Assembly (NCBI GenBank): GCA_035546615.1
Contig: DASZWM010000005.1
Span: 32,001 to 96,000, forward strand
Direction: 5' to 3'
DNA: 64,000 bases
From: Minisyncoccota bacterium
GTDB taxonomy: Bacteria; Patescibacteriota; Minisyncoccia; Phycocordibacterales; SBAW01
The notes beneath the pieces are model-generated. The model was not told where the DNA came from, did not search any database, and saw only the letters and a program-made list of their open reading frames with translations. Position 1 is the first letter of the stretch; every line of letters begins with the position of its first letter. Below are positions 1-52,599 of this stretch, piece by piece. The position numbers and the translations under genes are program-made.

Positions 1-1462
1 CGTGGCATTCAGGGCAGCCTTCGGGGCTGGCATCGTATATGGTGCCGGTCTGGGGAGGTAGCAGCGCCTTGTTGGTAAGGTCCGCGAGCACGCGGTCTAT
101 TATTTGCTGCTCGCCGGGGGTGGCCGGCCTGGTCTTGCGGCACTGCGCGCACAGCTTGCGCACGAGGCGCTGTGCCATCGCGACATTTACCGATGATGAA
201 AGCACCTTTTCGGAAATCCCGAGGTCGATGAGGCGGGGGAATGTCCCGGCCGCGTCGTTGGTGTGGAGCGTCGAGAATACGAGGTGGCCGGTCAGCGCCG
301 CGTTAATGGCGGTCGAGGCGACCTCTTCGTCGCGGATCTCGCCGATCATGATGATGTCCGGGTCCTGGCGGAGCGCGGAGCGCAGGCCCGCGGCGAACGT
401 GTATGTCTTTTTGTCCACCTGCGTCTGCACGACGCCCTGAAGGTGGTACTCGATAGGGTCCTCTATCGTGATAATTTTGCTGCCCGGAGAGTTCACCTTG
501 CGCAAAAAGGCGTAGAGCGTCGTCGTCTTGCCCGAACCCGTGGGGCCGGTGTTGAGTATCATGCCGTTTGGCTTCGTTATTTCGCGCTCGATGCGCGCGC
601 GCAGTTCGGGCTCGAGCCCCAGCTCCTCAAGCGGCACGCCGATGGATTTCGGATTCAGAATGCGCAGCACCATGGTCTCGGCGTAATTGCCGGGCAGCAC
701 CGAGGTGCGCAGCTCGATTTCCGCGCCTTTAATCTTTATGGAAAACCGGCCGTCCTGCGCTTCGTCGGCGACGTTGAGCTTGAGGCCGGAGAGAAGCTTG
801 AGGCGCGAGAGCACCTGCTTGTACGTTTCGTGGTCGAAAGTGAGCACGTCGACAAGCACGCCGTCGAGCCGATAGCGCAAACGCACGGCCGCCTCTTCCG
901 GCTCGAAGTGCACGTCGGATGCGTTGGTGGAGAGCCCGCCGGCAAGTATGACCTCCAGGATGCGCGTGATGCGGTAGGCGCGCTTGAGGTCTATCGCGTC
1001 TTTCACGAGCGCGCTGATGTCGGAGAGGCCTTTTACTTTCGAAAGCAGGTCTTCCAGCTCCTGGTTGGAGAGCTCGAACACGCCGGCCTTCGATTCGGTC
1101 GCGTAGGAGAGGTCCGCGTAGCGGGTGAATGCGCGCTTGAGGCTCTCGCTTGAGGTGATGAACACCGTTACCTCGTAGCCGAGGTCCTTGAGCTTTTGTA
1201 TCATGGCCTTCGCCTTCGGGTTCTCCGGCGAGCGGGCCGCGACGGTAACGCGCTTGCCCACGCGGCCGAAAGCGACGATTTCCGCGTCGTGCGCCTCGTC
1301 CTCGGTGAGGAGCCTCAGCGCGTCTGTGTTGACGGCCACCAGGGAAAGGTCCACATACTCCACTCCGTACTTGCCGGCGAGCATCTGCGCGAGTTCCTCT
1401 TCCTCGCGCTTGCGCAGAAAGTCGATGCGCTTTGTCTCTTCCGTGTCGTTAAAGACCACCAT
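1..1462 (-). CDS. Type IV pilus assembly / type II secretion ATPase (PilB/GspE family). Partial: the C-terminus runs past the left window edge, so it is absent from the ORF track.
   Basis: Reverse-strand translation gives an N-terminal GspE_N-like domain starting MVVFNDTEETKRIDFLRKREEEELAQMLAGKYGVEYVDLSLVAV. It also shows a Walker A motif (NTGPTGSGKTTTLYAF) and downstream LHTNDAAGTFPRLIDLGI and CxxC motifs typical of GspE/PilB. The ATG maps to 1462..1460. Confidence 0.8.
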   Translation of the reverse strand, partial: MVVFNDTEETKRIDFLRKREEEELAQMLAGKYGVEYVDLSLVAVNTDALRLLTEDEAHDAEIVAFGRVGKRVTVAARSPENPKAKAMIQKLKDLGYEVTVFITSSESLKRAFTRYADLSYATESKAGVFELSNQELEDLLSKVKGLSDISALVKDAIDLKRAYRITRILEVILAGGLSTNASDVHFEPEEAAVRLRYRLDGVLVDVLTFDHETYKQVLSRLKLLSGLKLNVADEAQDGRFSIKIKGAEIELRTSVLPGNYAETMVLRILNPKSIGVPLEELGLEPELRARIEREITKPNGMILNTGPTGSGKTTTLYAFLRKVNSPGSKIITIEDPIEYHLQGVVQTQVDKKTYTFAAGLRSALRQDPDIIMIGEIRDEEVASTAINAALTGHLVFSTLHTNDAAGTFPRLIDLGISEKVLSSSVNVAMAQRLVRKLCAQCRKTRPATPGEQQIIDRVLADLTNKALLPPQTGTIYDASPEGCPECH

Positions 1463-1942: not shown

Positions 1943-4324
1943 ATGGAAAAGAGCAAAAAACGGCTGGTGATACTCGATACGCACGCGATACTGCATCGCG
2001 CGTTCCACGCGCTGCCGGACTTCGCTTCGAGCAAGGGGGTGCCGACCGGCGCCCTGTACGGCCTTGTGTCTATGCTGGTGCGCATCGCGAGCGACCTCAA
2101 GCCCGACTACATCGCCGCGGCGTTCGACCTCCCCAAGCCGACCCACCGCCACCTGGCGTACGACAAATATAAATCGCACCGGCCCAAGACAGACGACGCA
2201 CTCGTGGCGCAGATAGAGCAGTCGCGCGAGGTGCTGAAAGCGTTCGGCATTCCGCTGTATGAGAACGAAGGATTCGAGGCGGACGACGTCATCGGGACCA
2301 TCGTGGAGGAAATGAAGGGCAGGAAGGACGTGGACCTCATTATTGCCTCCGGCGACATGGATATTCTCCAGCTGGTTGACGATGCGCGGGTGCGCGCGTT
2401 CATGCCGAAAAAAGGGCTTTCAGAGACAATGCTGTACGACGAAGACGCGGTCATTGCCCGCTACGGCTTCGGGCCTTCGCTCATTCCCGACTACAAGGGC
2501 CTGCGCGGCGATACAAGCGATAACATCCCGGGCGTGAAGGGCATAGGAGAAAAGACCGCCACAACGCTTATCACTACCTTCGGCACTGTGGAGGATATGT
2601 ACAAGGCGCTCAAGAAAAGCCCAAAGAAGTTCGAGGATGCGGGTATCAAGGGCGCGATGCTCGAAAAATTAAAGGCAGGAGAAGAGGAGGCGGAGTTTTC
2701 CAAGATGCTTGCGACGATACAGCGCGACGCGCCTATCGACTTTAAGCTCCCTGAGCGCAGCTGGCGCGAAAGCGCGCAGGTGGAGACCGTGCTCGATATG
2801 CTCGCGCAGTACGAGTTCCGTTCGCTAAGCCCTCGCGTGCGCGAGCTCTTCAACGGCAATACGCAGGACAAGGACTATGTGGCGGGCGACGAGCTGTTCG
2901 CGGAAGCGGCAGAGGTAGTTCCTGAGGACGAATTCAACAAGATAGCGCTGGCGGTATCAGTGCTGGACTCCAACATCGCGGAGCCGACGCTTGAGGATAT
3001 CTATCGCCTCGGGCGCTCGCGCGTGTTCGAAGAGGCCAAGAAGAACATTCTCGCCGAGATAAAGGAGAAGGAGCTTTCGTTCGTGTACGAGGCGATAGAG
3101 CTGCCGCTCATGCCGGTACTGCGGGCGATGGAGCGCAAGGGCGTGTGCATCGACAAGAAATTCCTGGCGGAGCTTTCGAAGGAATATCACGCCGAGCTCA
3201 AGAAAATAAGCGCGCGGATATTCGAAGCGGCGGGGGAGGAGTTCAATATCAATTCGCCGAAGCAATTGGGCGACATTCTTTTCGACAAGCTCGGGCTCAA
3301 GCCCGAGAAGCAGAAGAAGACCGCGGGGGGCGCCCGCTCGACGCGCGAGTCGGAACTCGAGAAGATGCGCCTGATGCATCCTATCGTTGCCGACATTTTG
3401 GCCTTCCGCGAGCTTTCAAAATTGCTTGGAACCTATATCGACAACCTGCCGACGCTTTTGGACGAGCATAACCGCGTGCATACGCACTTTATCCAGATGG
3501 GCGCCGCCACGGGACGCCTGGCGACCAAGGACCCGGGCCTCCAGAATATTCCCATCAAGACCGAGCTCGGCCGCGCTATACGCCGCGCATTCATCGCCGA
3601 GAAAGGCTACGAGCTTGTCGCGTTCGATTACAGCCAGATAGAGCTGCGCATCGCCGCGTGGCTCTCGGGTGACCCGGGCCTTATGGAGATATTCCGCGAC
3701 GGACGCGACGCGCATACCGAAGTCGCTTCGCGCGTGTTCCATGTGCGCGCCGAGGACGTGAGCTACGAGCAGCGACGCCGCGCCAAGGTCATCAACTTCG
3801 GTATCCTCTACGGCATGGGCGTTACCGCGCTCCAGCAGTCGCTCGGGACCTCCCGAAAAGAGGCGCAGGAGTTCTACAATCAGTACTTTGAAGCATTTCC
3901 CCGGCTGGCTGCATATATAGACGAGATAAAAATAAGCGTGAGCAAGCTCGGGTATGTCAAAACGTATTTCGGCCGACGCCGGTACATGGACGCCATCCAG
4001 TCGCCGATACCGTACGTGCGCGCGGCCGCCGAGCGCATGGCGGTCAATGCGCCGATGCAAGGGACGCAGGCAGACATCGTGAAGCTCGCCATGGTCGAGA
4101 TAGTGAAATATTTGAAGGACCAGGGCGCGCATGACAGCGCCCATATGCTGCTTCAGGTCCACGACGAACTCGTGTTCGAGATAGAAGAGGGGAGAGTAGC
4201 TGAGCTGGCGCCGAAAATAAAAGGCATCATGGAGAACATCGTACCGAGCGAGGAGCGAAACGGCATTCCGTTCATTGCCGAAGGGAAGGTCGGCAAGAAC
4301 TGGGGCGAGATGGAAAAACTATAA
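1943..4324 (+). CDS. polA: DNA polymerase I, 793 aa. It has a 5'-3' exonuclease domain plus the polymerase domain; the 3'-5' exonuclease region looks reduced.
   Basis: The N-terminus has a 5' nuclease domain (LVILDTHAILHRAFHAL ... ASGDMDILQL) and a 5'-nuclease HhH region (GVKGIGEKTATTLI). The C-terminus has family A polymerase motifs (DYSQIELRIAAWLSGD; RRRAKVINFGILYGMG; QVHDELVFE). Confidence 0.9.
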   Translation: MEKSKKRLVILDTHAILHRAFHALPDFASSKGVPTGALYGLVSMLVRIASDLKPDYIAAAFDLPKPTHRHLAYDKYKSHRPKTDDALVAQIEQSREVLKAFGIPLYENEGFEADDVIGTIVEEMKGRKDVDLIIASGDMDILQLVDDARVRAFMPKKGLSETMLYDEDAVIARYGFGPSLIPDYKGLRGDTSDNIPGVKGIGEKTATTLITTFGTVEDMYKALKKSPKKFEDAGIKGAMLEKLKAGEEEAEFSKMLATIQRDAPIDFKLPERSWRESAQVETVLDMLAQYEFRSLSPRVRELFNGNTQDKDYVAGDELFAEAAEVVPEDEFNKIALAVSVLDSNIAEPTLEDIYRLGRSRVFEEAKKNILAEIKEKELSFVYEAIELPLMPVLRAMERKGVCIDKKFLAELSKEYHAELKKISARIFEAAGEEFNINSPKQLGDILFDKLGLKPEKQKKTAGGARSTRESELEKMRLMHPIVADILAFRELSKLLGTYIDNLPTLLDEHNRVHTHFIQMGAATGRLATKDPGLQNIPIKTELGRAIRRAFIAEKGYELVAFDYSQIELRIAAWLSGDPGLMEIFRDGRDAHTEVASRVFHVRAEDVSYEQRRRAKVINFGILYGMGVTALQQSLGTSRKEAQEFYNQYFEAFPRLAAYIDEIKISVSKLGYVKTYFGRRRYMDAIQSPIPYVRAAAERMAVNAPMQGTQADIVKLAMVEIVKYLKDQGAHDSAHMLLQVHDELVFEIEEGRVAELAPKIKGIMENIVPSEERNGIPFIAEGKVGKNWGEMEKL

Positions 4325-19545: not shown

Positions 19546-19633
19546 TGGCGGAGGGGGTGAGATTCGAACTCACGGTACCTTGCGGTACTCTTGTTTTCAA
19601 GACAAGTGCACTCGGCCTCTATGCGACCCCTCC
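19546..19633 (-). tRNA. tRNA-Ser (anticodon TGA), type II with long variable arm; CCA encoded.
   Basis: Reverse complement: acceptor GGAGGGG/CCCCTCC, anticodon stem CTTGT/ACAAG with loop CTTGAAA, long variable arm AGTACCGCAAGGTAC, T-arm GTGAG-TTCGAAT-CTCAC, then GCCA. Confidence 0.8.
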
Positions 19634-20113
19634 CTGGCGATTTTGTATCTTACCACTGTACCAGTTATTTTCTAGGTAATGTTCCTCTGAGTGACAATTT
19701 GGACAAAGTAGTTCCAGGTTATCCAGCGTATTGTGTTGCCGGTTTCTGTCTTTGTGATGTACGTTTAATATCTCATACCTTGCATATCCGCATCGTTCGC
19801 AAATGGGGCCTCGCAGTTTCAACAGACGAAGTTTCAAGCCTCGCTGGTATACAACTTTGTCCTTAGGCGCTCGACCTTTGTATTTTATTCCTGCACGGTT
19901 GGTATTGGCGCAGCCTCTGCTACATGTATTTTTGTTTGCACTAGAGAGAATAGGTTTACCGCAGACAACACAAGGGTGTTCTTTTCGAGTAGCTAGTCCA
20001 TAACAGGTTTGACTGCAAAATACTCGACCTTGTTTAATTTGACCCGGTCGTCTATAGATTGGTTTGCCACAAACTGTGCATGCAGTATTGGGATTTCTTT
20101 TATACTCATCCAC
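19619..20113 (-). CDS. HNH endonuclease with N-terminal Cys-pair zinc-finger-like repeats.
   Basis: C-terminal HNH motif NVHHKDRNRQHNTLDNLELLCPNCH. Four CxxC pairs occur upstream (CTVCG, CSQTC, CVVCG, CERCG). The region 19070..20160 is clearly more AT-rich than the flanks. The 3' end overlaps the 5' end of tRNA-Ser by about 15 nt. Confidence 0.7.
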   Translation of the reverse strand: MDEYKRNPNTACTVCGKPIYRRPGQIKQGRVFCSQTCYGLATRKEHPCVVCGKPILSSANKNTCSRGCANTNRAGIKYKGRAPKDKVVYQRGLKLRLLKLRGPICERCGYARYEILNVHHKDRNRQHNTLDNLELLCPNCHSEEHYLENNWYSGKIQNRQGGVA

Positions 20114-20172: not shown

Positions 20173-20847
20173 ATGCTCGAAGGGAACATGGATATCCAGA
20201 TTGAGCGGCTGAAGAAAAATATAGACAAATTACAGAAGACGCATGGCCACCCGGACTATACAGCCTTGTACGGGACTGGCTGTATCGATCATCCGGACCT
20301 TTTTCTTATTCTTATGAATCCGACCGCACGCAATATATCCGTGCACAAGGATTGGAAGGGTCTTAAGGCTTCCTGGCTCGGGACAAAGAACTTTTGGAAG
20401 ATACTCTATAAACTCGAACTGATCTCGGCCAAAACTTTTGCAGCTACCCAGGAACGCGCCCCGGCCGAATGGGACAATGATTTCTGCGTCGCGGTGTATA
20501 CGGAGCTGGCGCGCAACAAGGTTTTTATCACCAACTTAGGCCGTTCAACCCAGCCTGACGCTCGACCACTCCCTGACGCGGTATATAAAGCGTGCGTTGC
20601 GCTCACCCAGGAAGAGATAAACGCAGTGAAGCCTAAAGTGGTCGTTCTCTTCGGGAATCAAGTAAGCTCAGCTTTGCTTGAAACACCGATCAAGGTTTCT
20701 GAAACCCGCAAGAAACGTTTTGATCTTGAGATAGGCGGTACGGTGTATCCCGTATATGCCACCTATTACCCGGTCGGCATGGGATTTATGAATGCCGATA
20801 AGACGATCGAAGATGTTCGCTGGATTCGCAAGGCGCATTCACGATAG
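20173..20847 (+). CDS. Uracil-DNA glycosylase superfamily protein; family uncertain.
   Basis: LFLILMNPTARN resembles the UDG/MUG motif-A region (GxNPG-like). A Tyr/Pro-rich motif-B-like stretch (TYYPVGMGF) lies near the C-terminus. 224 aa. Confidence 0.4.
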   Translation: MLEGNMDIQIERLKKNIDKLQKTHGHPDYTALYGTGCIDHPDLFLILMNPTARNISVHKDWKGLKASWLGTKNFWKILYKLELISAKTFAATQERAPAEWDNDFCVAVYTELARNKVFITNLGRSTQPDARPLPDAVYKACVALTQEEINAVKPKVVVLFGNQVSSALLETPIKVSETRKKRFDLEIGGTVYPVYATYYPVGMGFMNADKTIEDVRWIRKAHSR

Positions 20848-22640: not shown

Positions 22641-23312
22641 ATGGAAGGTCCTGCCAAACCCAGTAACAACACTAAGGAAAGCTCTCCTAAGCCTTCTGTT
22701 GAAGTTGAATCAGAGTTTGCCGAATTCGTGCCACAGGACTTCCTTAATGACCCTGTAGGATATTTTGAACGTGGAGGAAAGAATATAAAAACAGGAGAAG
22801 TTAAATATGATGAGGCTGGTGCGCTTCGTGAGGATCCAACTGCTGTAAAAGATTTACCAGTCTGGACGAATAGCAATGGAATAGAAATTCTTACGGTAGG
22901 AAGAAGGGTAAATACGATTAAGGGCGCTGTAGGAGAATCAGGAGATCCTTTCTACGAGTACAAAATCCTTGAGAAGCTTATGGAAATCGGGTTACCCGCT
23001 GCGAGGCCTATTGCGAAAGCAGAACAGGGCGGTACTCATATCATTGTCATGGAGCGTATTCCGGGGGTTAGGTGGTCTGAAAGAGAAAGTCTGAATCTCA
23101 AAGAAAAAGGATACTCTGACGAAGACATTGCAACTCTAATAAGTGAAGCAGAACAGAAAATGGATGGCCTGAAAACTCGCTTTGACGAAGCGGGAGTTAT
23201 TCGCAGTTGGAAACTGAAGGATATGGTATTTGAGATAGACATTGAGAATAAGAAAGTTATTTCTATAGTCCCCACAGATTGGGAAAGGACGAAGATTATT
23301 GAAAAGCAATAG
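22641..23312 (+). CDS. Small atypical kinase-like protein (RIO/Kdo-kinase-like fold; tentative), lower-GC gene.
   Basis: THIIVMERIPGVRW resembles the IVMEYIxG hinge motif of RIO/Kdo kinases. The downstream GVIRSWKLKDMVFEIDIENKKVISIVPTDWER resembles the catalytic-loop/DFG region. The gene starts 5 nt after tRNA-Val and its GC content is clearly below neighbouring genes. Confidence 0.4.
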   Translation: MEGPAKPSNNTKESSPKPSVEVESEFAEFVPQDFLNDPVGYFERGGKNIKTGEVKYDEAGALREDPTAVKDLPVWTNSNGIEILTVGRRVNTIKGAVGESGDPFYEYKILEKLMEIGLPAARPIAKAEQGGTHIIVMERIPGVRWSERESLNLKEKGYSDEDIATLISEAEQKMDGLKTRFDEAGVIRSWKLKDMVFEIDIENKKVISIVPTDWERTKIIEKQ

Positions 23313-26464: not shown

Positions 26465-26998
26465 ATGGAGGAATTTAAAAAATCTAAGGAAGCCGCGACA
26501 AGGAGCCTCAACCTTGCCGGCACTTTGCAGAAGCTTTTTCGCCCTGTCCTGATTAAAGGCATGGAGGGCGAAAAAACAGAGGATCCGATAGCTCGAGTAA
26601 TAGCGGAAGCAGGCCCTAAAAACCTAAGCGATATAGAATCGTATCTTACAGCGCAGAGCATTGATGCCCTTGCTCCTCTTGAGCACGGCTATGGCTTTAG
26701 TGCCGTAGTGCTTGACGCAGGCGATCGGGTGGTGCGCTTAAGCAGACTGAAGCCTACGCATAAACCCGGTATTCCCCTTGTCCTCCAGCCTCTTGCGGAG
26801 GAAATAGTGGGAAAAATTTCTGTGCAGATCTTCAAAAAGCTTCAGACGGCGGGAATTACGGACGCCGATGTACAGAATGTTAAGGACCAATTGGGGATGG
26901 AAGGGTATAGGTGGGATGACGCCGGTACCGACAACCTTGGGCGGGACGAGAACGGCCAACTTTTTATACTCGACGGTTCGGTGCATACACTCGCATGA
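26465..26998 (+). CDS. Small hypothetical protein with a weak kinase-like C-terminal pattern.
   Basis: 177 aa. VVRLSR ... GYRWDDAGTDNLGRDENGQLFILDGS resembles the beta3 / catalytic-loop / DFG arrangement. Starts 5 nt after tRNA-His. GC content is moderately below the flanks. Confidence 0.3.
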   Translation: MEEFKKSKEAATRSLNLAGTLQKLFRPVLIKGMEGEKTEDPIARVIAEAGPKNLSDIESYLTAQSIDALAPLEHGYGFSAVVLDAGDRVVRLSRLKPTHKPGIPLVLQPLAEEIVGKISVQIFKKLQTAGITDADVQNVKDQLGMEGYRWDDAGTDNLGRDENGQLFILDGSVHTLA

Positions 26999-39694: not shown

Positions 39695-39774
39695 GTTCGT
39701 TCGCGCAGTTCGACTCAACTGGCTCCAGCAATGGAGCCAGTCTTCTTTTTATATATACGGTATTCTGCTACTCT

Positions 39775-41421
39775 TTGTGCATGATCCGTGAGGCATTAGA
39801 GAAGGCTATCGCCGCGGCGCTGGGAGAACTCGGCGCCGGCAGTGTTTCGTTTACCGTAGAGCGCCCGGGCTCCATGGACCATGGCGACTACGCCACCAAC
39901 GCGGCGCTTGCCGCGGCAAAAGCGCTCAAGAAGAACCCGAAAGAAGTGGCGCAGATGCTGCTGACCATGCTCAGCAGCATCGAGGGCATAAAAAAAACAG
40001 AAATCGCGGGCGCGGGATTCATAAACTTTTTTATTTCGCGCGAAGCGGTTGCAAAAGAAATCTCGCGCGCCGCGCAGGACGCGGAGTGGGGAAGCAACAG
40101 TTTGTATAAAGGAAAGACGGTGATGGTGGAATATACCGACCCGAATCCGTTCAAGGAGTTCCATATTGGGCATCTGATGAGCAACGCGATAGGCGAGAGC
40201 GTTGCGCGAGTACTTGAAATCTCCGGCGCAAAAGTTATCCGCGCTAACTACCAGGGCGATGTAGGGCCGCATGTGGCAAAGGCTATCTGGGGAAAGATGC
40301 AGAAGCCGGAATTAAGCTGGGGCGAAACGTATGTGCTCGGCAACGCCGAATATGAAGCGCATAAGGCGGATATCGATATGATCAACAAGCAGGTCTACGA
40401 GAAAAGCGACGACAAGGTCGCTGAGCTATATGCCGCGGGACGCAAGCTTTCGCTGGAGCACTTTGAAGAGCTGTATACAGCGCTCGGCACGAAATTCGAC
40501 CGTTACTTTTTTGAAAGCGAGACGACGCCCCTAGGCACGGCTCTTGTAAAAAAGCATCCCGAGCTGTTCGTGGAAAGCGAGGGGGCAAGGGTATTTCGCG
40601 GCGAGGAAGAGGGGTTGCATACCCGCGTTTTTATCACTTCGCAGGGCTTGCCGACGTATGAAGCGAAGGACCTCGGACTTCTGGACGTAAAGAGCAAAGA
40701 GAAGCTCGACGTGTCCATCACCGTTACCGCGAACGAGCAGAACGAGTACTTTAAGGTAGTTCTTGCGGCTGCCGCGCATATCGCGGAACTTGCGGAGATA
40801 GCCGGAAAGACGAAGCACGTCTCGCACGGCATGATGCGCTTCGCCGAGGGCAAAATGTCCTCGCGCAAGGGGAACGTGATCACCGGCGAGTCGCTCTTGG
40901 AAGACCTTAAGGACGCCGCGAAAGAAAAGATGGAGGGCAGGGAACTGGCGGATGCCGAAAAGACTGCCGAGGCGGTTGCGGTGGGAGCGATAAAGTATTC
41001 GGTGCTCAAGCAGGGAAGCGGTCGCGACATTATATTCGACCCGGAGAAGTCGCTGAGCCTCGAAGGCGACTCGGGACCGTATATACAGTACGCGCACACC
41101 CGCGCGCTGTCGCTGCTTAAGAACGCCGGCCGCGAAGGCGTTGAACCAGGAACGGATGACAAGCCTGCTGCAGCAAATGCGCTCGAGCGGCTTATTCTGC
41201 ATTTTCCAGACGTGCTTTCCCGCGCAGCGCAAGAGTTGGAGCCGCATCACATAACGACGTACGTTACGGAACTCGCTTCAACGTTCAACAGCTGGTACGC
41301 GAGCGAGCGGATTATCGGCGGCACCAATCCGCAGTACGGAATTCTCATCGCGCAGGCGGTGGAAGCGACGCTCAAAAAAGGCCTGCATGCGCTTGGCATC
41401 CCAGCGCCCGAGGAGATGTAA
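39775..41421 (+). CDS. argS: Arginyl-tRNA synthetase.
   Basis: N-terminal Arg_tRNA_synt_N, HIGH-region PNPFKEFHIGHLMSNAIG, class I core, C-terminal DALR anticodon-binding domain. 548 aa. Confidence 0.9.
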   Translation: MCMIREALEKAIAAALGELGAGSVSFTVERPGSMDHGDYATNAALAAAKALKKNPKEVAQMLLTMLSSIEGIKKTEIAGAGFINFFISREAVAKEISRAAQDAEWGSNSLYKGKTVMVEYTDPNPFKEFHIGHLMSNAIGESVARVLEISGAKVIRANYQGDVGPHVAKAIWGKMQKPELSWGETYVLGNAEYEAHKADIDMINKQVYEKSDDKVAELYAAGRKLSLEHFEELYTALGTKFDRYFFESETTPLGTALVKKHPELFVESEGARVFRGEEEGLHTRVFITSQGLPTYEAKDLGLLDVKSKEKLDVSITVTANEQNEYFKVVLAAAAHIAELAEIAGKTKHVSHGMMRFAEGKMSSRKGNVITGESLLEDLKDAAKEKMEGRELADAEKTAEAVAVGAIKYSVLKQGSGRDIIFDPEKSLSLEGDSGPYIQYAHTRALSLLKNAGREGVEPGTDDKPAAANALERLILHFPDVLSRAAQELEPHHITTYVTELASTFNSWYASERIIGGTNPQYGILIAQAVEATLKKGLHALGIPAPEEM

Positions 41422-41423
41422 CT

Positions 41424-42026
41424 ATGAAAATACTTGGCCGAGGCTGGCAATATACTACCTACGATATAGGAAATGGTCGCGTGCTTAAAAAGTATAATTC
41501 GTTCCTAGTAGCTTATGCGGTAATGCTCAATGCCTGTGTCAAATCAGATAGGCTTTCGATTTTTAAAATTCCGCAATACCACAGAGGCTGTAAAGAATTT
41601 GCACGAAGCTCTCTAAAGAAAGCGACCAGTGGCCTGCTTGATAGTTGGATGGTTGGCAATCCAAAGCCGCTAAATGAATTGGATTACGAACAAGACAAGC
41701 TCATTCCGCTCCATGAACGCATCAACGGAATTAGTTTAGAAAAGGCAAAAGGGTATATTGACCGTTTTGTTGATTTCAATAAAACTCTTTTGGAGAGAGG
41801 TCTCATCGACAAAAGTTTTAATATTACTAAGAACTTCGGCATAGATTCCGAAGGAAGGATTGTTTTGATGGATCTTGGTGAATTGCACTCAGAAAAGCTA
41901 GCTATAGAAAAACAACGACGTAAACGGATGTGGACGTACCCATATGTAGTAAATTGCATCTTAGATGAGGAAGTACGTGCCTACTATGTTCAGCGGATGG
42001 ACGAAAGCTTTGGATTAGCCGCATAG
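41424..42026 (+). CDS. Small atypical protein-kinase-like protein (tentative), strongly AT-rich gene.
   Basis: KILGRGWQYTTYDIGNGRVLKKY (Gly-rich loop followed by a Lys) ... GLIDKSFNITKNFGIDSEGRIVLMDLGELH (catalytic-loop-like D..N and DLG in place of DFG). GC content is far below the flanking argS and ileS. Confidence 0.4.
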   Translation: MKILGRGWQYTTYDIGNGRVLKKYNSFLVAYAVMLNACVKSDRLSIFKIPQYHRGCKEFARSSLKKATSGLLDSWMVGNPKPLNELDYEQDKLIPLHERINGISLEKAKGYIDRFVDFNKTLLERGLIDKSFNITKNFGIDSEGRIVLMDLGELHSEKLAIEKQRRKRMWTYPYVVNCILDEEVRAYYVQRMDESFGLAA

Positions 42027-42058
42027 CCTTTGTTTTTAAGGCTTAAGTGCTATAGTTT

Positions 42059-45000
42059 TTGGATATGTCCGAAGTGGGGAAGTCAGAAGTGGCCAAGCGC
42101 GAGGAGAAAGTACTCGCTTTTTGGAAAGAACAGCAGATATTCGAGCGCAGCGTTGGGAAGCGCGCGCCGCGCGGCGAATTCACCTTTTATGACGGCCCGC
42201 CGTTCGCAACCGGCCTGCCGCACCACGGCAGCCTCCTGTCCTCGATAATTAAGGACGTCGTTCCGCGCTATAAGACCATGCGCGGCTACCGCGTCCCGCG
42301 CCGCTGGGGCTGGGACTGCCACGGGCTTCCCATCGAGAACCTGGTCGAAAAGAAGCTCGGCCTCAAGACAAAGAAAGACATTCTTTCCATCGGCATCGAT
42401 ACGTTTAACGAGGAGGCGCGCTCGACCGTGCTCCAATACGTGCACGACTGGGAGCAGTACGTGGACCGCGTGGGCCGCTGGGTGGATTTCAGGAACTCGT
42501 ACAAGACGATGGACAACTCGTATATCGAGACCGTCTGGTGGGCGCTCAAGGAAATGCAGGACAAGAAGCTTTTGTACGAGGGCCGGAAGGTGCTCATGTA
42601 CTGCCCGCACTGCGAAACGCCGCTTGCCAAGGCCGAAATTGCCGCCGACAATACCTACAAGGATATTACCGAGGAGGCCGTTACCATCAAGTTCAAGCTT
42701 AAGTATCCGCAGAAGTTCGGCCTTCCCGAAAATACGTATCTGCTTGCGTGGACGACGACCCCGTGGACGCTTCCGGGCAACGTGGGGCTCGCGGTCGGGC
42801 CTGACATCCCATACGTGCTTGTGGAGCAAAACGGCGAGTACCTCGTGCTTGCGCGCGACCTGAAAGGGCAGGCGTCCGGCACGGTCGCGGGAGAACTGCT
42901 CGGCCGGCAGATGGTCGGCGCGGACTACGAGCCGCTCTATCGCATCAATGCGGTAGAGGCGCACAAAGGAAGGAAGCATCAGGTGCTTGCGGCGGACTTC
43001 GTCACTACGACCGAAGGCACGGGCATCGTGCACACCGCCGTCATGTACGGCGAGGACGACTTCGCGCTCGGGCAAAAAGAGGGCTTGCCGATGGTGCAGC
43101 TCCTCAGCCAGAACGGCACGTACAACGACAACGCGCCGGAGTTCGTGCGCGGCGAGTATATAAAGAAGGCGGAGAAGCTCATCAAGGAAGACCTCGAGGA
43201 AAAGGGCCTGCTCTTTTCCCGCGCGAACCACACGCACTCCTACCCGCACTGCTGGCGCTGCGGCACCGCGCTCATCTACAACGCCGTCGCGTCCTGGTTC
43301 ATCAATATTCAGAAGGTGAAGGCGAAGATGCTTTCGGAGAACCAGAAGATAAACTGGGTGCCCGCGTACCTGCGCGACGGGCGGTTCAGGAACATCCTTG
43401 AGAACGCGCCGGATTGGACGATATCGCGCAACCGCTTCTGGGCCTCTCCCTTGCCGATATGGAAGGAGAAGGGCGGCAAGAACCTGATGGTCGTGGGTTC
43501 TGTCGAGGAATTGCTGAAAAAGACGAAGCGCTCCGGCAACAAGTACTTCGTGATGCGCCACGGAGAGGCGCGTCACAATGTGGAAGATGCCATGGACGGC
43601 GCCGGAAGGCCGGACAACCACCTGACCGACGCGGGGAGAGAATATGTGCGCGCGGCGGCGCAGGAGTTTAAAAAAAGGCAGGAGATAGACCTTATCGTTA
43701 TGTCTCCGTTCGTGCGCACCCGCGAAACTGCCGCTATCGTCCAGGAAGTATTCGGTCTTCCCGATTCTGCCGTGGCCGTCGATAACCGCCTCCATGAAAT
43801 AGGGTTCGGCGAGTTCGAAGGCAGGCCGCTCAGGGAGTGGGCGGAATTCTTCGGTTCGCTTGAGAACAGGTTCTTAAAGACTCCCGAAGGGGGAGAGCCG
43901 TTTAGCGACGTGCGCCGGCGCGTGGGGGATTTCCTGTTCGAGATAGAGCGCCGGTATGTGGGCAAGAATATCCTCATCGTGACCCACAAGGGGCCGGGCT
44001 GGCTGCTTAATGCGGTGGCAAAGCGCTACTCCGCCGCGCAGATAGCCAATGAAGAGGAATATTCGCCCTTCATGCGCAACGACAAGGCTCAGCGCATATA
44101 CGAGCTTCCGTTCACGCCCTTCCCGCACAATAAGGACTACGAGATGGACCTGCACCGCCCGTATATCGACGCGATAACGCTTGTGGACGCTCAAGGCCGC
44201 GGCTACGAGCGCATTCCGGAGGTCATCGACTGCTGGGTCGAGTCCGGCGCCATGCCGTACGCGAGCAATCACTACCCCTTTAAGAACAAGAACCGCTTCA
44301 ATCCGGCGCGCTTCTTCGGCTTGTGGCCGAAAGGTTTCCCGGCGCAGTTCATCGCCGAGTACATCGGGCAGACGCGCACCTGGTTCTACTACATGCTTGC
44401 GGTCAGCACCGTTCTCTCGGGACGGGCCTCATTCCAGAACGTGGTATCCACCGGCAACCTGCTTGCGGCGGACGGCGCGAAACTTTCCAAATCCAAGGGC
44501 AACTACACCGACCCGCTCAACATCATGAACCAGTTCGGCGCCGACGCGTACCGCTTCTACCTCATGGGCTCGGTCGTGATGAACAGCGAGGACCTCCAGT
44601 TCCGCGACGAGGACGTGCGCGAGGCCAACAACCGCGTGCTCGGCATACTTTGGAACTGCTACAAGTTCTTCGAGCTCTACAAAGACGAGCGCGACCCCGC
44701 GATACGCGCTCAGGATAGCTCGCACCCGCTTGATCGCTGGGTACTGTCGCTTCTTAACAAAACCACTGCCGCAGTAACGGCAGCGATGGAAGCGTACGAC
44801 ACGCCGGGGGCATGCAAGGCCCTGCGCGCGTTCGTCGACGACTACTCCACCTGGTATGTGCGCCGCTCGCGCGACCGCGTGAAGGGCGAGGATGAGGCTG
44901 ACAAGCAGTTCGCGCTCGCGACCCAGTACGAGGTGCTTTTAACGCTTTCGCAATTGTTCGCGCCCATCACGCCGTATATTTCCGAAAGCATCTACCGCTC

Positions 45001-52041: not shown

Positions 52042-52599
52042 ATGAGAATTTGTATTTTCGGCGATAGTATCACTTGGGGAGAGGGAGATAAGGAAATCGG
52101 CGGATGGGCTGATCGTCTAAAGGTCCATTTAATGGAACGGGATTTTAGCGTTTACAATCTTGGAATTAGAGGGGACACAAGCGCTGGCGTTTTAGATCGG
52201 TTCAAACAAGAAATTGCTGCACGCAGCCGAAAGCTGGGAGGTATCTTGTTCGCGATAGGAATTAACGATTGCCTTCAGGGAGTTTCCGTAGAAGAGTTCC
52301 AGAATAATATGCGAACCCTTATGGAGCTATCTCCGGAGTTTGCGGACACAACTATAATGATAGGCCTAACAAGAACCACGGATACCTCGGCCAATGAAAA
52401 GATAGAGCAATTTAATAAGGAGCTGGAGGTCCTCTGCAGAGAAAGAAAAGTTTTGTTTATTCCCATGTTCGACCTTTTCGCAACAGATGATTTAACGAAA
52501 GACGGTCTCCATCCGAGTCCGACTGGCTACAAGAAGATGTTCGAGCGTATCAAACTTGTTCTAGAACCGCTTCTGCCTGTAATGACTGTCGACCAATGA
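52042..52599 (+). CDS. SGNH/GDSL-family hydrolase.
   Basis: MRICIFGDSITWGEGD (GDS(L) block I), G in block II, GINDC block III, DGLHPS block V. Confidence 0.7.
   Translation: MRICIFGDSITWGEGDKEIGGWADRLKVHLMERDFSVYNLGIRGDTSAGVLDRFKQEIAARSRKLGGILFAIGINDCLQGVSVEEFQNNMRTLMELSPEFADTTIMIGLTRTTDTSANEKIEQFNKELEVLCRERKVLFIPMFDLFATDDLTKDGLHPSPTGYKKMFERIKLVLEPLLPVMTVDQ

Follow-up and report, generated by a model that had tools for sequence, protein, structure and literature searches.

The stretch of DNA considered here, referred to as the window, is 64 kilobases (kb) of contig DASZWM010000005.1 from a Minisyncoccota bacterium, and the element in question is a short gene wedged between two aminoacyl-tRNA synthetase genes, argS upstream and ileS downstream. 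This open reading frame (ORF), labeled gene X, encodes a stand-alone protein of 200 amino acids (aa) that resembles protein kinases (Table 1). The original prediction for this ORF had called it kinase-like on the strength of two motifs; ORF and motifs are as described, with LGRGWQYTTYDIGNGRVLKK at residues 4-23 of the translation and IDKSFNITKNFGIDSEGRIVLMDLGE at residues 128-153. It had also put X between argS and ileS with short gaps, and this too is correct: 2 nucleotides (nt) separate the argS stop codon from the ATG of X, and X is followed at 32 nt by a TTG (42059) and at 38 nt by an ATG (42065), either of which could open ileS. The orthologous isoleucyl-tRNA synthetase (IleRS) at the related locus L001 begins MSEMGK..., and translation from the ATG of the window gives MSEVGK..., which points to the ATG as the true start.

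The features around the gene suggest that it is expressed together with its upstream neighbor. A Shine-Dalgarno-like sequence before X lies within the end of argS, a placement that suggests translational coupling; a strong hairpin upstream of argS probably marks the beginning of an argS-X-ileS transcription unit. No terminator was found between the three genes, nor any plus-strand promoter-like site inside or beside X, so that in the lineage of the window X is probably co-transcribed with argS, and probably with ileS as well, and coupled in translation to the former. The possibility of a T-box or other RNA element ahead of ileS was rejected, as Rfam at E ≤ 1 gave none in 41000-42400.

Table 1. 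Positions of gene X, its predicted functional motifs, its neighbors and other features of the window
Feature	Position	Strand	Remarks
Terminator-like hairpin	39718..39741	+	strong; 10-bp stem, then T-rich tail; directly upstream of argS
argS	39775..41421	+	upstream neighbor; Pfam Arg_tRNA_synt_N, tRNA-synt_1d, DALR_1; syntenic in L001, L002, L003
Shine-Dalgarno-like GAGGAG	41410..41415	+	8 nt before the ATG of X, within the argS 3' end; read from the sequence
Gene X	41424..42026	+	ATG start, 200 aa; predicted stand-alone minimal protein-kinase-like (AceK-related) protein
Gly-rich loop G5-x-G7-W-Q-Y-x-x-Y13	41436..41462	+	beta1-beta2; model strands 2-6 and 10-14
K22	41487..41489	+	predicted ATP-phosphate-binding beta3 lysine; model strand 19-24
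Family signature Y88-E-Q90-D91	41685..41696	+	strand beta5 / hinge
Putative catalytic loop D129-KSFNIT-K136-N137	41808..41834	+	from alignment with AceK and family conservation
D150-L-G152-E153	41871..41882	+	predicted Mg-binding DFG-equivalent motif
ileS	42059 (TTG) or 42065 (ATG)..45490	+	downstream neighbor; Pfam tRNA-synt_1, His_Phos_1, tRNA-synt_1g, Anticodon_1
His_Phos_1 insert in IleRS	~43547..44035	+	aa 497-659 if numbered from TTG 42059; Pfam
HNH endonuclease gene	19619..20113	-	GC 43.6%
UDG-superfamily gene	20173..20847	+	GC 49.5%
AT-rich ORF	22641..23312		223 aa
ORF	26465..26998	+	177 aa, no Pfam hit
GDSL lipase/acylhydrolase gene	52042..52599	+	GC 44.8%, 32.6% rare codons

The case for a kinase begins with the predicted structure. 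An AlphaFold2 model built from 51 family members (pLDDT 92.5, pTM 0.87) gives X a bilobal kinase fold, with a beta-rich N-lobe and a helical C-lobe, but neither an activation segment nor a large substrate-binding lobe; a Foldseek search with this model ranked AceK chains at the top, at E of about 1e-5.

The residues that such a fold would use are conserved, as judged in two sets of sequences: 51 close members, and a broad family of 58 sequences with identities down to 24%. In the glycine-rich loop G5, G7, W8, Q9 and Y13 are invariant among the close members, and G7 is kept in 57 of the 58. K22 is invariant in both sets (51/51 and 58/58), and its position in the fold would make it the counterpart of AceK K336 and PKA K72. 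Within the family signature, Q90 does not vary even at 24% identity, and 52 of the broad set have D91. Position 129 is always acidic (D in 47, E in 11; n = 58), and N137 follows in 57 of 58. In the DFG-equivalent motif D150 is invariant (58/58), with G152 in all 51 close members and in 50 of the broader 58. This pattern of conservation is typical of an active enzyme and suggests that the catalytic core is intact.

At the sequence level the AceK kinase domain is the sole relative that can be detected. The family profile finds AceK among the PDB sequences at E 0.013, and 30 of the 51 members match Pfam AceK_kinase (PF06315) at E ≤ 1, the best of them at 7.7e-7; in bit scores the top member just equals the gathering cut-off, at 29.3, and the others lie at 25-28. 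Comparison of the family with E. coli AceK by hhalign (probability 82.7%, E 9.5e-6) aligns residues 78-188 of X with 405-522 of AceK, placing K136-N137-F-G on K461-N462-F-G and D150-L-G-E153 on D475-Y-D477-E478. The catalytic triad of AceK consists of D457, N462 and D475; K461 corresponds in function to PKA K168, ATP is bound by the lysine K336, and D477 is required for phosphatase but not kinase activity (PMC3747045). The kinase-like character proposed originally is thus supported by the fold model, the profile link to AceK and the conserved ATP- and Mg-binding residues.

The interpretation favored here is that X is probably a minimal kinase-like enzyme, of an undescribed family whose closest characterized relative is the AceK kinase domain. 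Such an enzyme would bind ATP-Mg under the G5xG7 loop by way of K22, N137 and D150, and residue 129, which is acidic, would be the putative base for transfer or hydrolysis of the gamma-phosphate. It would most likely act on one specific macromolecular partner, like the minimal kinases AceK, RIO and Bud32: the very small C-lobe and the likeness to those enzymes make a macromolecule a somewhat likelier partner than a small molecule.

The family to which X belongs is large and lineage-bound. Close homologues number 113, each about 200 aa long, and those with a source name are all hypothetical proteins; the named sources are Candidatus Paceibacterota, Nomura-, Giovannoni- and Staskawiczbacteria and 'Patescibacteria group'. 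One NCBI protein, VHD55_02535 from a metagenome-assembled genome (MAG) of Candidatus Paceibacterota, is identical to X. A profile search over 1.84 billion representatives (E ≤ 1e-3, clusters at 50% identity) yielded 621 clusters, almost all of them stand-alone proteins of 195-220 aa. Among species-representative genomes 45 X loci were found, nearly all in MAGs of Patescibacteria (Paceibacteria, Parcubacteria and others), together with a few contigs carrying other labels. Some genomes hold more than one copy: L008 has two, at 468..1070 and 3086..3730, within 3 kb of each other and with an ABC-transporter gene between them, and one MAG (JBAYHJ01) holds both L025 and L045, divergent paralogues 45% and 33% identical to X. 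Literature searches on AceK, on atypical and kinase-like proteins and on Patescibacteria and Parcubacteria gave nothing on the family. On present evidence, then, these sequences appear to form an undescribed family that does not extend beyond Paceibacteria-type Patescibacteria.

Several observations weigh against assigning X to the kinases in this way. The protein of the window has no match in Pfam, NCBIfam or the PDB sequences; it falls under every Pfam threshold and, like P0002 and P0027, gives no match to AceK_kinase. The link to AceK exists at the profile level only, and spans just the C-terminal two thirds of X. From the acidic residue 129 to N137 there are 8 residues, not 5, which is 3 more than in AceK or the eukaryotic protein kinases, and this atypical spacing makes the part of residue 129 as catalytic base a presumptive one. 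In helices 27-40 and 46-68 neither the 51 nor the 58 sequences share a conserved glutamate that could serve as that of alphaC; some atypical kinases lack this residue. Lastly, the neighborhood of X is not conserved across the family: when the neighbors within three genes were clustered for about 50 loci, no cluster occurred in more than 4 of them. There is no conserved operon partner, and so the neighborhood points to no substrate.

The same comparison sets X apart from AceK itself. AceK has 578 aa, as against the 200 of X, which begins at the glycine-rich loop and is without the N-terminal regulatory domain. After DxGE, at the place of AceK's substrate-recognition loop, the alignment shows a loop about 10 residues shorter in X; the position of AceK D477 is occupied by Gly152, so that X does not carry the DxD motif of AceK. 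Taken with the longer catalytic loop and the missing alphaC glutamate, these differences argue for a new AceK-related family rather than for AceK. As the regulatory domain, recognition loop and D477 are all absent, neither isocitrate dehydrogenase kinase/phosphatase function nor phosphatase activity of the AceK type is expected of X. For the regulation of isocitrate dehydrogenase, the function of AceK, there is no support: no gene for that enzyme was noticed in the window or in the loci read, among which no systematic search for one was made.

One alternative, unlikely but deserving of serious attention, would make X a small-molecule or glycan kinase, comparable with the Kdo/WaaP lipopolysaccharide kinases or the aminoglycoside and choline kinases and acting on a sugar, an envelope polymer or a metabolite. 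Its support comes from genes joined to X or lying near it. Two of the ten long X hits have recognizable extra domains, and both tie X to polysaccharide genes: P0124 consists of pyruvyl transferase, Polysacc_synt and X, and P0139 of X and a GT4 glycosyltransferase. In one clade X is preceded by a large protein, encoded at -1/-2, and, at -2/-3, by a multi-pass membrane protein; on the author's reading of the sequences, these may be a GH39/cellulase-type protein and a Wzx-type flippase. Among the 150 proteins encoded within two genes of X, 4 give Pfam hits of the GH39/cellulase type. Phosphohydrolases among the same 150 (NUDIX 5, HAD 4, His_Phos_1 3, Maf 2, HD 2) exceed those in a control set taken at 4-6 genes (NUDIX 2, others none). 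However, both fusions may result from the merging of separate gene calls, and the neighbor categories were set after the data had been seen. The C-lobe, moreover, extends only about 50 residues past DxG, whereas the known small-molecule kinases of this fold have a larger helical substrate lobe.

A second alternative likens X in function to Bud32 or RIO: it would be the bacterial analogue of one of these, an ATPase serving either tRNA t6A modification, together with TsaD (the Kae1 orthologue), or ribosome maturation. RIO kinases are ribosome-maturation factors of archaea and eukaryotes, and Bacteria use TsaB and TsaE in place of Bud32, which belongs to KEOPS. The analogy draws on a shared architecture, minimal and lacking an activation loop, and on the genes for TsaD that adjoin X in L015 (+1) and L041 (-1) and lie five genes away in L005 and L008. 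It is improbable, because the sequence affinity of X is to AceK and no Pfam RIO1 or Bud32 hit was obtained. To RIO1 and RIO2 the likeness is one of fold only: none of the 51 members matches RIO1 (PF01163) among the Pfam families listed, and X has neither the N-terminal helix nor the winged-helix domain specific to RIO kinases. With Bud32/PRPK there is no sequence similarity, and the association with TsaD is sparse (4 of about 51 loci, in about two lineages, and none at the locus of the window). The TsaD proteins in question (L015 7787..9109, L041 438..1646, L005 12487..13713, L008 7569..8864) have 402-440 aa; this is about 60-100 residues longer than the typical bacterial TsaD.

A third alternative, more doubtful still, takes its lead from the downstream synthetase. 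The IleRS of the window contains a complete His_Phos_1 domain (PGAM-like, RHG...H) between the two halves of its class I catalytic domain, and the orthologues in L001 and L002 have the same architecture. Searching with the insert domain gave 10 hits, among them two IleRS plus His_Phos_1 products of about 300 aa; full-length IleRS proteins were not recovered by this search, and no published report of an IleRS with an inserted histidine phosphatase was found. X and a histidine phosphatase, here the one inserted in IleRS, could then be a pair that reversibly phosphorylates a component of translation, for example a synthetase.

The position of X between synthetase genes, and the presence of the insert in all three syntenic genomes, are consistent with such a pair. 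So are the loci in which His_Phos_1 abuts X as a separate gene (L047, L036 and L030) or stands alone within four genes of it (L019, L010 and L028). Over all loci, 6 of 10 His_Phos_1 hits are at +/-1 (binomial p ~2e-4, or ~6e-3 with the IleRS lineage as a single case; a post hoc statistic on small numbers). Two further neighbors fit as well: pth is directly upstream of X in L004 and L011, and in L055 a HicA-toxin gene (3787..3996) lies upstream, overlapping the start of X by 4 nt. Against the pair, the phosphatases adjacent to X fall in different subfamilies, most loci have no phosphatase or translation gene nearby, the argS-X-ileS order is found in one small clade only, and there is no conserved antitoxin-like partner.

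An extension of this idea, a further step into speculation, recalls the HipA/HipT toxin kinases, which phosphorylate aminoacyl-tRNA synthetases: like them X would belong to the kinase superfamily and has a tie to synthetases, in its case by location. X and the His_Phos_1 domain, embedded in IleRS here and stand-alone elsewhere, would on this scheme form a phosphorylation switch on the translation apparatus, in which rare codons keep the dose of kinase low; it would be the equivalent of the HipA-type kinases in housekeeping form, fixed in the chromosome. HipA itself, however, has about 440 aa and another domain build and is absent from the fold hits, while X has no antitoxin partner and is conserved like a housekeeping gene.

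It is very improbable that X is a catalytically dead pseudokinase or a scaffold. The lack of a conserved alphaC glutamate and the unusual spacing of the catalytic loop might be taken in that sense, as might K136, which is not kept in the wider family; but K22 and D150 are invariant, N137 is nearly so and residue 129 is always acidic, all down to 24% identity.

If X is probably an enzyme, there is still its odd composition to account for. The gene has about 40.6% GC (GC1/2/3 = 0.49/0.33/0.40), as against 57.4% for the window. It is the lowest-GC stretch of 603 nt (sliding windows: mean 0.574, sd 0.049; z ~ -3.4, lowest 0.1%) and has the lowest GC of all called ORFs, just as the original prediction had it when it named X the most AT-rich coding region; the step in GC falls at the ends of the ORF. 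The tetranucleotide distance from the window is likewise large (z 3.3, top 1%), but once normalized for base composition it drops to the 14th percentile and is no outlier: what deviates is the base composition, with no foreign signature in the oligonucleotides.

Most of the deficit is a matter of codon choice. Reference genes have 59.8% GC; the X protein written in reference codon usage would have 54.1%, and the gene as observed has about 40.7%, which assigns about 30% of the deficit to amino-acid composition and about 70% to codons. Amino-acid composition as the whole cause, through an excess of K, N, Y, I and L and a deficit of A, P and T, is rejected on this account. GC3 is 0.395, where reference codon usage would give 0.763, and rare codons make up 32.5% of X, as against 7-15% in reference genes.

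Nor is the bias a peculiarity of this one locus. In 52 of 54 loci the GC of X is below that of its flanks (median -5.8 points; Wilcoxon p 2e-10); GC3 of X equals genomic GC3 in low-GC genomes and lags behind it in GC-rich ones (regression slope 0.62). AT-rich, rare-codon coding is a stable trait, interpreted as specific to this gene, and not the trace of a horizontal transfer. The favored, putative explanation is that low GC3 is probably selected, for example to hold kinase expression down within a housekeeping operon.

The relatives of the window lineage show where X has been. In the window, L001 and L002/L003 a common array runs SHMT - DUF2914 - argS - X - ileS (with the His_Phos_1 insert) - recO - a CLIPPER-domain protein - a class II synthetase. 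X occupies the identical position in each, with the same offset in composition, at 71% identity to the window protein in L001 and 53% in L002/L003; a comparison of the argS-ileS interval, proposed at the outset as a check on recent import, therefore counts against it. X has diverged in step with the genes around it: compared with L001 and L002, respectively, the window shows identities of 70.5% and 52.5% in X, 73.7% and 51.2% in ArgRS, 72.1% and 60.7% in IleRS, and 71.0% and 56.9% in RecO. The gene is under strong purifying selection and evolves about as slowly as ArgRS.

The synonymous sites lead to the same conclusion. Fourfold-degenerate third bases at conserved residues of the X orthologues agree in 26% of cases, and 26% is what composition alone predicts; these sites are therefore saturated. 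Yet GC3 in the three orthologues is 0.40, 0.43 and 0.45, where the neighboring genes have 0.5-0.8. A low GC3 that has been kept past saturation, by three lineages in parallel, is not a compositional relic of a recent import. No mobility genes flank X, tblastn gave no phage or plasmid match to it, and neither PADLOC defense systems nor PHROGs include a match. The position of X between argS and ileS is an inherited one, older than the split of the window lineage from its two relatives.

Over longer spans the picture is more fluid. Neighbor-joining on X places the window, L001 and L002 in one clade, within which L055 is nested; L055 is a 5-kb contig with other genes beside X, and its homologue, P0004, is 58% identical to the window protein. 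The argS-X-ileS order is limited to one small clade, and the context of X varies over longer times. Such shifts, of which L055 is an example, mean that X does move on long time scales, which counts against the reading favored here.

The proposal of the original prediction that X was recently acquired, as a small foreign island between two housekeeping genes, has the sharp compositional edges in its favor but is refuted for any recent time scale: relatives share the gene at this locus with the same GC offset, which was named at the outset as the observation that would overturn the claim, and the co-divergence, the saturated sites, the family-wide bias, the unremarkable normalized oligonucleotides and the absence of mobile association all contradict it.

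X had also been counted as the third member of a set of small kinase-like proteins in the window. At the level of fold this holds for at least two ORFs, as the AT-rich ORF 22641..23312 independently models as a protein-kinase-like fold; homology is another matter. Neither phmmer nor the family HMM found any paralogue of X in the window (only X itself), and hhalign gave no significant match between the family and ORF 22641 or ORF 26465. The latter, ORF 26465..26998, may be the other kinase-like ORF that was meant: it ends in TDNLGRDENGQLFILDG, a short motif that resembles TKNFGIDSEGRIVLMDLG of X. By these models the window appears to hold at least two unrelated mini-kinase-fold genes, both persistently AT-rich. 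Other genes of low GC there are included in Table 1.

These results have a practical implication for genome scans. An extreme and sharply bounded dip in GC is usually put down to horizontal transfer. In X such a dip belongs stably to a gene that has been inherited vertically, and it recurs in a second gene with a predicted mini-kinase fold. The question it raises is why conserved genes of a regulatory type keep AT-rich, rare-codon coding in GC-rich lineages. The IleRS with an inserted His_Phos_1 domain, for its part, is an apparently unreported synthetase architecture and merits separate study.

Patescibacteria have very small genomes, in which a large share of the conserved genes is without an assigned function. 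X would represent a new family within a well-known superfamily: about 620 clusters, conserved about as well as an aminoacyl-tRNA synthetase, with all inspected members annotated as hypothetical, can now be placed, on profile and model evidence, as a likely minimal AceK-related enzyme of the kinase fold. For experimenters this placement offers a concrete, testable start.

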